A stretch of DNA of 64,000 nt, taken from contig CAWEQH010000004.1 in assembly GCA_963811165.1 (NCBI GenBank), forward strand, positions 448,001 to 512,000, written 5' to 3'. The stretch is from an uncultured Nitrospiraceae bacterium. Lineage in GTDB: Bacteria > Nitrospirota > Thermodesulfovibrionia > Thermodesulfovibrionales > UBA6898. Both the position numbers and the translations under genes were made by a program. The notes under the pieces were generated by a model, which saw nothing but the letters and a program-made list of their open reading frames with translations, had not been told where the DNA came from and did no database searches. Below, piece after piece: positions 11,871 to 25,388 of the stretch; position 1 is the stretch's first letter, and each line of letters opens with the position of its first letter.

Positions 11871-12919
11871 GTGGATGAACATCTCTCTCCAGAACAATAC
11901 TCGGTTCACTCACACAGATAGAAGAGACCTTCCGGTCCGACATCGGGAGGGTCGCAACCTTGGCGACCTCCAGCAGGTCAGGGCCAAGTATTCAGGAAAG
12001 AAAGGGCTTTTAACGGAAAAGATGAAGGCCCTTTCCTCGGTCCCCGATCCCATCCAGAAGAAGCGCAATTACGGCAGGACGGATCAACGAGCTAAAGAAT
12101 TTTATCGAGGAGTCGTTAAAGGGCAGGGAACTTCTTCTTAAGGAAGTCGAGCAGGAGAGGCGGCTCCTCACTGAAAAGATAGACATCACCCTCCCGGGTA
12201 AATCCGTTAAGTTCGGCAGAAGACATCCGATAAACCAGGTCCTCTCAGAGATAAAGGACATATTCGTCTCGATGGGTTTCGGGATAGAAGACGGGCCCGA
12301 GGTCGAGCTCGACCACTATAATTTCGAGGCCCTCAATATTCCGAAAGACCATCCGGCCCGGGACATGCAAGACACCTTTTACATCTCCGGCGACGTAGTG
12401 CTTCGGACCCATACCTCTCCGGTACAGGTAAGGGTAATGGAAAAGAGAAAGCCGCCCCTCAAGATCATTGCGCCGGGCAAGGTATACCGCTGCGATGCAG
12501 ATGTCTCCCATACCGCCATGTTCCACCAGGTCGAAGGGCTCATGGTGGACACCGACGTTTCCTTCAGTGACCTTAAGGGTGTGCTCGAATTATTTATCCA
12601 CAGTTTTTTCGGCAAAGAGACCCCTGTGAGGTTCAGGCCCAGCTATTTCCCCTTTACCGAGCCGAGCGCCGAGGTGGATATCGGCTGTGTATTTTGTAAA
12701 GGGAAAGGCTGCAGGGTATGTAAGACAACCGGATGGCTTGAGGTGCTTGGCTCAGGACTTGTCAATCCCAGGGTGTTTGAGATGGCCGGATACGACCCCG
12801 GGCAATACTCCGGGTTTGCCTTCGGCATGGGAGTCGAGAGGATGACGATGCTCAAGTATTCGATAGATGATATACGGCTGTTCTATGAAAACGACCTGAG
12901 GTTTTTAAGGCAATTCTAA
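11871..12919 (+). CDS. pheS: Phenylalanine--tRNA ligase alpha subunit (5' part frameshifted, start approximate)
   Basis: [50 protein letters not shown]. Confidence 0.95.
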
Positions 12920-21925: not shown

Positions 21926-22813
21926 GTGGATATACACCATCTCAGGGTATTTGCATCTGTCTTCAAACACAGAAGCTTTTCAAAGGCTTCCGAGGAGTTG
22001 CACCTGACTCAGCCGACGGTGAGCGACCATATCAAGGCGCTTGAAGAGGAGCTCAACTGCAAGCTCTTCGACCGGCTCAGCAGAAAGATTATCCCCACAA
22101 AAGAGGCCGGCGTTCTTATTGGGCGCGCCGGTGAGATCATCGAGAAGGTCGAGGGCATTCAGGGACTTTTGGGGGAGTCCAGAAAAGAGCTTTCCGGCCA
22201 TCTCATCATCGGCGCAAGCACAATCCCTGCAACGTATATCCTTCCGGGTCTCACCGCGTCATACAGGAAAAAACATCCCGGCGTTTTTTTCGAGATAGTC
22301 GTTTCGGACTCGCGGGGGATAATAGATAAAGTCGCGGGGCACGATCTCCTTGTCGGCATGGTGGGGGCCAAGCTGGATAACGGGCAGGTCCATTACACCC
22401 CTTTTCTTGACGACGAGCTGATAGCAATAGCAGCGCCTTCCCCGGCAAAGATCAGGGGCCTCGGCCTCAGAGAGATTGCGGCACTTCCAATGGTCATGCG
22501 GGAACAGGGGTCAGGCACACGGAGGGAGTTTGAAAAGATACTCCTAAAGGAGGGTATCGATCCGCAGCAGCTCAGCATTGTCGGCCTGTTTGGCTCTACC
22601 GATGCGATTAAACAGGCGGTCAAGGAAGGGATGGGCATCTCGGTTATTTCCCGCCGCGCAGTGCGGGATGAGCTTAAGTGCAACATGCTTCGGGAGATCA
22701 AGATAAAGAATGCCGATATGAAACGGCAATTTTTTATCGTCACCCACAGGAAAAGAACGCTCCCGCACATCTACAGAGGCTTCCTTGAATTTCTTCTTCC
22801 CGGTTCCCAATAG
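21926..22813 (+). CDS. Selenium-metabolism-associated LysR family regulator
   Basis: LysR HTH (SFSKASEELHLTQPTVS), IGASTIPATYILP, REQGSGTR; upstream of a YedF gene. Confidence 0.88.
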   Translation: MDIHHLRVFASVFKHRSFSKASEELHLTQPTVSDHIKALEEELNCKLFDRLSRKIIPTKEAGVLIGRAGEIIEKVEGIQGLLGESRKELSGHLIIGASTIPATYILPGLTASYRKKHPGVFFEIVVSDSRGIIDKVAGHDLLVGMVGAKLDNGQVHYTPFLDDELIAIAAPSPAKIRGLGLREIAALPMVMREQGSGTRREFEKILLKEGIDPQQLSIVGLFGSTDAIKQAVKEGMGISVISRRAVRDELKCNMLREIKIKNADMKRQFFIVTHRKRTLPHIYRGFLEFLLPGSQ

Positions 22814-22874: not shown

Positions 22875-22943
22875 ATAGGTAGTGCCCTATGGATAGATAT
22901 TATCTATTGGTAATATAGATTAAAGATATCTTATTATTTGACC
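22875..22943 (+). promoter_or_regulatory. LysR-type operator boxes and -35 element
   Basis: ATAG-N8-CTAT (22875-22890), perfect ATAG-N7-CTAT (22893-22907), ATAG-N7-ATAT (22915-22929), TTGACC at 22938. Confidence 0.6.
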
Positions 22944-22975: not shown

Positions 22976-23032
22976 ATGAAGCACTACGAAGAGAGAATGT
23001 ATAACGCGAAGAGATATAAGGGCTATACCTGA
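22976..23032 (+). CDS. Putative 18-aa leader peptide ending in TGA
   Basis: MKHYEERMYNAKRYKGYT*; the stop lies 3 nt before the tRNA-like gene; only a weak GGA SD. Confidence 0.3.
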   Translation: MKHYEERMYNAKRYKGYT

Positions 23033-23035
23033 AGC

Positions 23036-23130
23036 GGGGGGCAAGGGGTTGGTGCCCCTCCCGGTCTGCAAAACCGGCATATAGCCGAAAATAGGCTATT
23101 GTGGGTTCGATTCCCACTGTTCCCTCTCCA
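23036..23130 (+). tRNA. tRNA(Sec)-like scaffold with Cys anticodon GCA and U73 (selC*-type tRNA-Cys)
   Basis: 6-bp D-stem AGGGGT/GCCCCT with TGGT loop; anticodon arm CCGGT-CTGCAAA-ACCGG; long variable arm ATAGCC/GGCTAT; T-arm GTGGG-TTCGATT-CCCAC; 3' end T-CCA. Confidence 0.88.
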
Positions 23131-23185: not shown

Positions 23186-23632
23186 ATGGCGGAAGAAAAG
23201 AAGATGACCGTGGAAGAGGTGAATGAGTATATGAAGCAGAAATGCGGCTTTGTGCCGAGAATGTTTCAGATCATAAACACGGTAACGCCCGAGCCCGGAA
23301 GGACGTTTGCCGACTTTTATGCGAGTATTTTCGGAGACGGCGCATTGTCGAAAAAAATAAAGGAACTGATGTTCATGTCCGGCGGAGTCGCCTATTGCTC
23401 TCCGAGATGTATCATTCATGTCATCCCGGCGATTAATGCGGGAGCGACGACGGGAGAGATATTCGAGGCCGCATCTGTCGGCATGATTTTGGCAGGTTTC
23501 GTGCCCGGCGGCCCGGGAATACCCTATGCCTTCGAATATGCCCTTAAGTGTCTCGATATTGAGGCAAAATACAGGAAGGGCGAAAAATGGGAGTATCTGC
23601 CCGCGCCCAGGTTCGATCATGGGGTGTTCTGA
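23186..23632 (+). CDS. Carboxymuconolactone decarboxylase/AhpD-like protein
   Basis: DGALSKKIKELM...CSPRCIIH...AINAGATTGEIFEA; AGGAGG RBS. Confidence 0.85.
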   Translation: MAEEKKMTVEEVNEYMKQKCGFVPRMFQIINTVTPEPGRTFADFYASIFGDGALSKKIKELMFMSGGVAYCSPRCIIHVIPAINAGATTGEIFEAASVGMILAGFVPGGPGIPYAFEYALKCLDIEAKYRKGEKWEYLPAPRFDHGVF

Positions 23633-23690: not shown

Positions 23691-24449
23691 ATGCGTAATA
23701 CCAAGACGTCATTCCAGATAAGAGTCCTGTTGGTCCCACTGGTATTTCTCATCATGGTAATGGGAACATCATCTGTTTCCGCAGAGAACACGTATAGAAT
23801 CATTTCAACCGGGCAGCTTAAGACGATGCTCAGCGCAAAGGAAGATTTCACTCTTATCGACGCCAGGACAAAGGATGAATTCGACGAAGCGCATATAGTC
23901 GGGGCGATCAACATCCCTGAAAAAAACTTTGAAGCAATGATGTCCGCCCTTCCGGCAAACAAAAACGTCCTCCTGGTCATCTACTGTAACGGAACGAAGT
24001 GCGGCAAGAGCAAAAAGGTTGCGGCAAAGGCAGAGGCAGCGGGATACACAAACATCATGCTCTATGCGGAGGGGTTCCCGGTGTGGGAAGAAAAGGCAAT
24101 GCCTATCAGCGCAGGACCTGATTACCGCAAAAAGATTGAAACAACGAAGCTCAACCCGGCGGAGCTGAAAAAGATGATCGACAGCGGATCAAAGGACTTC
24201 GTCATTGTAGATGTCCGGGATGAAACAGAATACGGCGAGGGGCACATACCCACTGCCATAAACATTCCGGTAGAGACTTTCGCTGTCAGGTCGGAGGCGC
24301 TGCCGAAAGAAAAGAAGATCGTCGTTTACTGCAATACCGGAGGCAGAAGTTATACTGCCTATAGAAAACTGGTGAAGCTTGCCTATCCGAACATCTACCA
24401 GACGCTATTTGCCGATTGGAAAGAGTCCGGGCAGGCGGTGGAAAAATAG
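23691..24449 (+). CDS. Exported tandem rhodanese-domain protein
   Basis: Signal peptide; two DxR..E...HI..A.NIP repeats with YCNGTKCGKS and YCNTGGRS loops. Confidence 0.9.
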   Translation: MRNTKTSFQIRVLLVPLVFLIMVMGTSSVSAENTYRIISTGQLKTMLSAKEDFTLIDARTKDEFDEAHIVGAINIPEKNFEAMMSALPANKNVLLVIYCNGTKCGKSKKVAAKAEAAGYTNIMLYAEGFPVWEEKAMPISAGPDYRKKIETTKLNPAELKKMIDSGSKDFVIVDVRDETEYGEGHIPTAINIPVETFAVRSEALPKEKKIVVYCNTGGRSYTAYRKLVKLAYPNIYQTLFADWKESGQAVEK

Positions 24450-24458
24450 GAGGTAGAA

Positions 24459-25049
24459 ATGGTTATAGACGCAAGAAATCAGGGCTGTCCGAAACCTGTG
24501 ATGATGGCTGAAGAAGCCCTCTCGAAAATCACGGAAGGAATTGTCGAGGTCATTGTTGACAATGAGCCTTCTGCAGATAACCTTGCATGGTTTGCAAAGA
24601 GCAATGCCTTCTTTTCTGAGACAATCAGGGATGGTCGAAACTGGCGGGTGAAGATAGTGAAAGGGTATGCTTGTGCGCCTGCGCCTGAAGCAGAAAAAGC
24701 ACCGGAGGCGAAAAAAGACCTGCTCATAGTCGTGGGCACGGATACGATGGGGAAGGAAGAAGAACTCGGCAAGATTCTGATGAAGGGCTATTTTGAAACG
24801 ATGAAGACCTACAAGCAGATACCTGACGCGATCTTTTTTCTGAATGCCGGCGTAAAGCTTACCACTACAAATGCCGACATCTGTCCCATTCTGAAAGAGA
24901 TCGAGACTATAGGTGTGGAGATATATTCCTGCGGAACATGCCTCAAACACTACGGACTTGAAGCACAACTAAAGGTGGGCCACAGGGGGACGACGAACCA
25001 TATTGTGGAAGGCATGAAGGACTTTAATAAGACTGTCTGGATAGGATAG
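24459..25049 (+). CDS. yedF: Sulfurtransferase-like selenium metabolism protein YedF (TusA/SirA plus DsrE-like)
   Basis: IDARNQGCPKPV; ELGKILM; FLNAGVKL; SCGTCLKHY. Confidence 0.9.
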   Translation: MVIDARNQGCPKPVMMAEEALSKITEGIVEVIVDNEPSADNLAWFAKSNAFFSETIRDGRNWRVKIVKGYACAPAPEAEKAPEAKKDLLIVVGTDTMGKEEELGKILMKGYFETMKTYKQIPDAIFFLNAGVKLTTTNADICPILKEIETIGVEIYSCGTCLKHYGLEAQLKVGHRGTTNHIVEGMKDFNKTVWIG

Positions 25050-25076: not shown

Positions 25077-25104
25077 TTGACACCCTAGCGGTTCGGGATA
25101 TACT
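25077..25104 (+). promoter_or_regulatory. Sigma-70 promoter
   Basis: TTGACA-N16-TATACT upstream of the small lipoprotein gene. Confidence 0.6.
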
Positions 25105-25176: not shown

Positions 25177-25338
25177 ATGAAAAGAATAGTCAGCTTCATT
25201 CTATTAAGTATCCTGCTCGTCGCATTAGGTGGATGTTTATGGGTGCATGAACGCGACGGGGGCGAGCGCGATCGCGGGGAGCGCTATGAACATGAACGCG
25301 GCGAGCATGAGCATCATGAAATGGAAGAGAGGCGGTAA
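25177..25338 (+). CDS. Small lipoprotein with His/Glu/Arg-rich tail (53 aa)
   Basis: TAAGGAGGT RBS; MKRIVSFILLSILLVALGG-C lipobox; ...HERGEHEHHEMEERR*. Below the ORF-track length cutoff. Confidence 0.8.
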   Translation: MKRIVSFILLSILLVALGGCLWVHERDGGERDRGERYEHERGEHEHHEMEERR

Positions 25339-25388
25339 GAATCTGTCGTCAATATTTTGAAATTAGCGATCTCAAAACTGGATTCATA

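Follow-up and report, generated by a model that had tools for sequence, protein, structure and literature searches.

We found that positions 23036-23130 (forward strand) of the window, the whole 64,000-nt stretch of DNA analyzed here, hold a real extra cysteine tRNA gene with the body of a tRNA-Sec, which stands as a third gene besides the selC and the canonical tRNA-Cys of the same genome. It belongs to the Nitrospirae type of the selC* tRNA-Cys class (tRNAReC); this class has been in print since 2017, and the tRNA as such adds nothing new. We posit, with a probability of about 0.7, that this tRNAReC likely receives Cys from the cysteinyl-tRNA synthetase (CysRS) and is likely taken by SelB to UGA codons with a SECIS behind them, such that Cys would stand in for Sec. 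According to the cited part of a 2026 paper (PMC13582414), the division of labor between tRNA-Sec and tRNAReC is still open, and with the operator, the candidate regulator and the short list of UGA-Sec genes (see below), it can be put to the test in cultured Thermodesulfovibrio, where the selC* in the cited portion of Mukai's list is of the same type as the window gene. For annotators, there is the caution that UGA may be read as Cys in such genomes. The gene and its parts are:

23036-23130, + strand: selC* tRNA-Cys (tRNAReC), Nitrospirae type (ARAGORN, Rfam, fold and homologue comparison)
23036-23043, + strand: acceptor 5' strand, 8 nt (from sequence)
23044-23059, + strand: D-arm, 6 bp, UGGU loop
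23061-23077, + strand: anticodon arm, 5-bp stem, GCA at 23068-23070
23078-23100, + strand: variable region, 6-bp stem
23101-23117, + strand: T-arm, 5 bp
23118-23126, + strand: acceptor 3' strand, 9 nt
23120-23121, + strand: TT where homologues show one base, in the 3' acceptor strand (homologue and contig comparison)
23127 and 23128-23130, + strand: U73 and the encoded CCA (from sequence)

The gene is 95 nt long, with a GCA anticodon, U73, an encoded CCA, a G1:C72 pair and no linker ahead of the D-stem. ARAGORN calls it tRNA-Cys(GCA), and the Rfam tRNA-Sec model (RF01852), with which the earlier note had proposed to score it, gives 57.3 bits, where the gathering score is 47; no other Rfam match within the window reaches gathering. 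The cloverleaf is the minimum-free-energy fold (z = -2.8; equally good folds in 3 of 200 shuffles), and a homologue-built model, R1, returns 88.7 bits with the window copy among its training rows. Sequence, Rfam score and fold thus agree with the earlier note in its description of a tRNA-Sec-shaped RNA carrying GCA, U73 and CCA. It was right as well that this is no ordinary or miscalled selC, since the genome also has a normal tRNA-Cys and a separate selC with UCA and G73. The other canonical genes, which it had suggested seeking elsewhere in the genome, were all found: selA, a single selB, a selD with an in-frame TGA, and the canonical tRNA-Cys; a full CysRS is present too (the last two at C1:280702 and C8:198529). 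ARAGORN also calls a third 'tRNA-Cys(aca)' at G000:C4:644207-644298, which lacks the normal tRNA motifs and is probably spurious.

The cited part of Mukai 2017 (PMC5389517) defines the selC* tRNA-Cys by a tRNA-Sec-like body, U73 and a GCA or UCA anticodon, with the UCA members occurring in other lineages, and has Thermodesulfovibrio and Nitrospirae among the named hosts. The working definition of tRNAReC (PMC13582414, cited in part), namely at least 80 nt, GCA or UCA, and U73, likewise applies to the 95-nt window gene with its GCA and U73. In a by-eye comparison with those of Mukai's Thermodesulfovibrio and Nitrospirae entries that we cite, the window gene agrees arm by arm, and the earlier note had named the right class: the 8/5 structure, the UGG-N D-loop and the long variable arm are shared, the T-arm and anticodon arm are near-identical, and GCA, G1:C72, U73, CCA and a genome with complete selABCD are common to both. 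The window gene departs from these entries in an extra 3' acceptor base, a probable error (see below), and an inserted leader of roughly 90 nt, and its uncultured relatives form a family outside the cited 2017 table. The earlier note took the 5-bp T-stem for a departure from the class, which does not hold: the Thermodesulfovibrio selC* sequences in the cited part of PMC5389517 combine an 8-bp acceptor with a 5-bp T-stem, and the 8/4 fold is stated there only for certain delta-proteobacteria. The 8/4 selC* of Syntrophobacterales and Desulfobacterales described in that part are of the same class, from which the window gene differs in being 8/5, with GCA and with neither the A51a bulge nor an adjacent selB* or cysS*. 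With bacterial tRNA-Sec (RF01852) it shares the 13-bp acceptor-T helix, the long D-stem with a 4-nt loop and the long variable arm, but differs from selC in having GCA rather than UCA, U73 rather than G73 and an acceptor-to-D-stem gap shorter by 2-3 nt. In contrast to canonical tRNA-Cys (7/5, with a short variable loop and about 74-76 nt), it has 95 nt, an 8/5 structure and a long arm.

Homologues were collected by BLAST over 61 related genomes with no anticodon selection, which found 30 loci, two of them selC and the other 28 with GCA, and by a pattern scan of genome contigs that imposed the anticodon loop and whose listed matches are mostly from Nitrospirota/Thermodesulfovibrionales, so that the organism of the window probably belongs to the latter order. 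Together these yielded at least 84 distinct sequences; four of the 84 among the matches listed were removed, three as G73 look-alikes and one for a mis-parsed start. G1:C72, U73 and CCA are present in all 80 retained homologues among these matches, and U73 in 15 of 16 metagenome loci, the remaining one (L167) having A73 and an acceptor mismatch and being a variant or an error. Across 64 aligned rows from the matches listed, 94.9% of the cells of the 8/5 structure are paired (50-66% in slid controls), two-sided changes occur in 15 of its 28 pairs, and all cells (100%) of the 5-bp T-stem are paired. Among the matches listed there is almost no variation in the anticodon loop, in part an effect of the search pattern. 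The homologue-built model separates selC* (at least 77 bits) from selC (at most 67 bits) and detects selC* in 30 of the 61 relatives and, in a sample of the phylum with 141 genomes, in 25; within the sample of its own genus the gene is patchy (3/8 genomes, that of the window included). Viral contigs gave no match. Several homologues have very long variable arms, with total lengths of 119-146 nt (L080, L152, L028, L067, L102, L114 and L022). Three further Sec-like GCA tRNAs (L052:2481-2575, a Cloacimonadota record; L145:281-375; L149:248-342) have G73, a 7-bp acceptor and C or A at the first position; these are not selC* and are possibly tRNA-Sec variants that read Cys codons.

As assembled, the acceptor stem has 8 pairs plus one surplus base, the 3' strand being 9 nt instead of 8 nt owing to a surplus T at 23120/23121. 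The irregularity that the earlier note saw in this stem is hence present, but the miscounted G-run to which it had tentatively ascribed it is ruled out, the run having the same length in close relatives. The extra T is missing from all 79 other homologues among the matches listed and from 16 of 16 metagenome loci, and the contigs of three of four sequencing runs from three studies, which represent relatives and not the same strain, omit one base at 23121. About 2.5 kb upstream, a gene that we take from its sequence to be fabF-like is broken into three frames by private 1-nt insertions at about 20233 and 20695, both absent from 4/4 relatives, which themselves show 9, 2, 5 and 1 private gap columns in this comparison. 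Given its absence from homologues and other contigs, and the private insertions nearby, the extra T is probably an assembly error, and the real gene is likely intact. The pheS gene also lies in two pieces (11875-12919); the assembly is indel-prone and other split genes of the window are suspect.

Were the extra U real, the window copy might instead be a decaying selC* whose acceptor, slipped by one base, leaves an overhang of 5 nt and would be poorly read by CysRS and SelB. We regard this as rather unlikely, although it is the best-surviving alternative. With the extra U, the slipped acceptor fold is the minimum-free-energy one (-41.9 versus -40.7 kcal/mol, a difference of 1.2; P(G1:C72) 0.27); moreover, the window copy is one base short, compared with most relatives, where the variable region begins, its leader pairs more weakly than most of theirs, and the gene is patchy in its genus as noted. 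On the other side, the private fabF insertions indicate that errors of this kind occur in the assembly, a U-A pair in the anticodon stem of the window copy has changed on both sides to C-G with pairing kept, and both the LysR gene and the operator are intact.

For an intact gene, the reading that we prefer runs as follows. The ordinary CysRS would charge tRNAReC with Cys through GCA and U73, an assignment taken from the family, and the housekeeping SelB, the single copy in this genome, would carry Cys-tRNAReC to UGA codons that precede a SECIS hairpin. For the window copy, three features suggest such charging and delivery: its identity marks, its 13-bp helix and its T-arm, which does not differ from that of the same genome's selC. 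GCA members of tRNAReC are reported to recode UGA-SECIS (PMC11415595 and PMC13582414, each cited in part), and the GCA copy of Desulfotomaculum nigrificans, according to the cited part of PMC11415595, binds SelB and not EF-Tu. The latter shares with the window gene a GCA anticodon on a tRNA-Sec-like body, but in that portion of the source it is a Clostridia-type sequence whose function was tested, whereas the window gene is of the Nitrospirae type. Against recoding, GCA on UGA requires a G:A mismatch.

With GCA only near-cognate to UGA, it is conceivable, if unlikely, that the RNA accepts Cys and binds SelB yet takes no part in decoding, acting as a SelB decoy or as a tRNA-bound sulfur carrier for the rhodanese and YedF proteins. 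Sulfur/selenium-trafficking genes are co-located in 52 of 67 loci among the matches listed, and the variable arms of some homologues are very long (up to 146 nt in total), both of which count in favor of such a role. These observations are countered by the recoding reported for GCA members in the cited parts of PMC11415595 and PMC13582414, by the near-invariant anticodon loop among the matches listed (in part a product of the search pattern), and by the UCA members of other lineages in the cited part of PMC5389517. That EF-Tu brings the tRNA to UGC/UGU codons as a second Cys isoacceptor is less likely still: GCA is cognate to these, all CysRS marks are present, and a 12-bp delta-proteobacterial copy functioned with EF-Tu in E. 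coli in the published part that we cite, but the 13-bp acceptor-T helix, the selC-identical T-arm, the normal tRNA-Cys already in the genome, the selB adjacency in relatives and the lack of EF-Tu binding reported for the D. nigrificans copy (PMC11415595, cited in part) all speak against it. Equally hard to credit, or slightly more so, is a tRNA serylated through its long arm and converted by SelA, which would insert Sec at UGC/UGU like the Aeromonas tRNA-Sec(GCA). The long variable arm and the Sec-like D-arm would suit this route; in the cited portions of the literature, U73 allo-tRNAs are proposed Ser acceptors and A. salmonicida has a GCA tRNA-Sec (PMC11415595). It is opposed by U73 in 80/80 homologues among the matches listed versus the G73 of the genome's selC, by the absence here of the linker that precedes the D-stem in selC, and by the use of TGA in the Sec genes detected in the window genome.

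The window genome has at least seven UGA-Sec genes, in each of which the TGA is at the position of a redox Cys: SelD, a peroxiredoxin, two ResA-like proteins, a Uxx-star glutaredoxin-like, an Rcas_1661-like and an OS_HP2-like protein. Only SelD exceeds its family cut-off among these matches; the screen was crude, with 31 of 16,014 TGA sites passing a codon filter, a motif list in addition and 7 followed, and some genes will have been missed. The genome's only selB is on a contig other than that of selC*, and a search of this genome for a dedicated selB* found none. Among the relatives, selB is present in 30/30 genomes with selC*, which says little as selB is near universal in the group (single-copy in 59/61, with both genomes that lack it also lacking selC*). 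The tRNA is directly followed by selB in 7 of 84 homologue loci among the matches listed, all in Nitrospirota (L035, L037, L039, L054, L064, L138 and L150), and all four genomes checked that have this adjacency carry 2-3 selB copies, versus one in a fifth genome without it. The cited part of Mukai 2017 (PMC5389517) names the selC*-selB pairing only for two delta-proteobacterial orders. A CysRS-like paralogue of 404 aa (L174:1498-2712; G000:C10:697737-698948), encoded behind a membrane-transporter-like gene, lacks the C-terminal part with the anticodon domain, has altered zinc-ligand motifs, and is found in 22/61 relatives, nearly all from one family. We considered it as a dedicated CysRS* and rejected it, as it does not track selC* (13/17/9/22, p = 0.29).

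The genes and sites around the tRNA are:

21926-22813, + strand: LysR_Se, an HrsM-like selenium-metabolism LysR gene (NF040786, 290 bits, cut-off 250), in tandem upstream of the tRNA
22893-22929, + strand: two-box inverted-repeat operator, the predicted LysR site (PWM and homologue conservation)
22976-23032, + strand: leader that separates the promoter from the tRNA in one sub-clade and can be read as an 18-codon mini-ORF with TGA as its stop
23186-23632, + strand: CMD/AhpD-like protein gene (PF02627)
23691-24449, + strand: tandem rhodanese-domain protein gene (PF00581, two stretches)
24459-25049, + strand: yedF, a sulfurtransferase-like selenium metabolism protein gene (TIGR03527, 193.8 bits, cut-off 110)

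The tie to Se/S status surmised in the earlier note is thereby strengthened, with LysR_Se upstream, yedF downstream and such neighbors recurring in other loci: among the matches listed, 67 homologue loci span 1.5 kb or more, of which 32 have a LysR upstream, 19 yedF downstream and 52 one of eight recurring neighbors. Across the 61 genomes, the LysR orthologue and selC* are both present in 26, selC* alone in 4, LysR alone in 7 and neither in 24, counts in which kinship inflates the test. The operator reads ATAG-N7-CTAT, with a second, degenerate box 22 nt on. A matrix was built from 46 homologue sites with the window's own site left out; its scan of the 3.66-Mb genome returned the window operator (33.5 bits) as the sole site, with 0, 0 and 2 weak matches in three shuffles. 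Thus, no second site that would point to a wider regulon was found in this genome, and none is near selA, selB or selD. An operator is upstream of 48 of 83 homologues among the matches listed, 28 of these at -50 to -53 from G1; the matrix was trained on these homologue sites, with the spacing not imposed. In the 28 loci a TTGAC-like hexamer directly follows the operator, a spacing that predicts a start at about G1 and would have the two boxes overlie the core promoter. In the window copy the -35 box is weak, and a consensus scan called no promoter there. The operator was absent nearby in 4 of 5 checked loci with LysR only.

In the cited parts of PMC5322559 and PMC11097638, HrsM, an archaeal orthologue, represses Cys-isoform genes under adequate Se. 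The window locus resembles this system in that a LysR_Se regulator is tied to a Cys-for-Sec backup and to yedF; it differs in that HrsM, as described there, switches duplicate Cys-isoform genes in an archaeon, whereas the predicted target here is a recoding tRNA in a bacterium. Based on the conserved and unique operator, the co-occurrence of LysR with selC* and the HrsM analogy, we slightly favor the view that the LysR represses the unit in adequate selenium and that starvation releases tRNAReC. The adjacent LysR is predicted to bind the operator over the promoter when selenium is adequate, and a shortage would release tRNAReC along with the S/Se-trafficking genes behind it. A literature search found no paper that links LysR_Se to tRNAReC control, though supplements or Vargas-Rodriguez 2018 may contain one. 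The first of the genes behind the tRNA, the CMD gene, begins 55 nt after it with no terminator called in between, and the unit probably ends at yedF, which is followed by a strong sigma-70-like promoter (11/12; 25077-25104); beyond the latter lies a small His/Glu/Arg-rich ORF (25178-25339).

That short, terminator-free gap would also suit the cis-acting tRNA mimic that the earlier note had offered as an option, here placed in the CMD-rhodanese-yedF mRNA leader, but this is very improbable, given the U73-CCA retained in 80/80 homologues and a promoter geometry that sets the start at about G1 in 28/83 (both among the matches listed), downstream genes that differ widely across the listed loci, and a relative (G040) in which the LysR, operator and yedF persist without the tRNA.

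For tRNAReC as we favor it, a second layer of control may be considered for the window's sub-clade, in which the promoter-to-tRNA distance is about 90 nt. Here, the leader could pair with the variable arm during transcription and gate the folding of the pre-tRNA, with a ribosome at the UGA of the mini-ORF deciding tRNA maturation. That both layers act jointly, with a LysR_Se switch at a sole site covering the tRNAReC promoter and a leader that gates folding, is a long shot, but if true it would amount to a selenium-starvation switch for the genetic code. Leader positions 23021-23030 can pair with the 5' strand of the variable arm, at 8/10 positions in the window and at 9-10 of 10 in 13 of 15 distinct well-kept leaders among the matches listed, and the same ten bases close the short ORF at its TGA. 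In modeled co-transcriptional folding, the leader/arm helix dominates in six relatives and is marginal in the window copy. Covariation between leader and arm is weak (one two-sided change versus nine combinations with a break, among the matches listed), and the complementarity could be chance kept by descent; we treat it as a lead only. Two other identities for the leader were rejected: a sigma-70 -10 box, in which the key bases vary among relatives and the promoter scan called nothing, and a hicB remnant, for which there is no ORF with the same start in the genome or the loci, the local HicB proteins begin differently, and a Pfam search of the mini-ORF gave no match. The final 14 nt of the leader are kept despite rearrangements upstream, and an exact copy of them occurs in 5/54 genomes of the family, always right before the tRNA.
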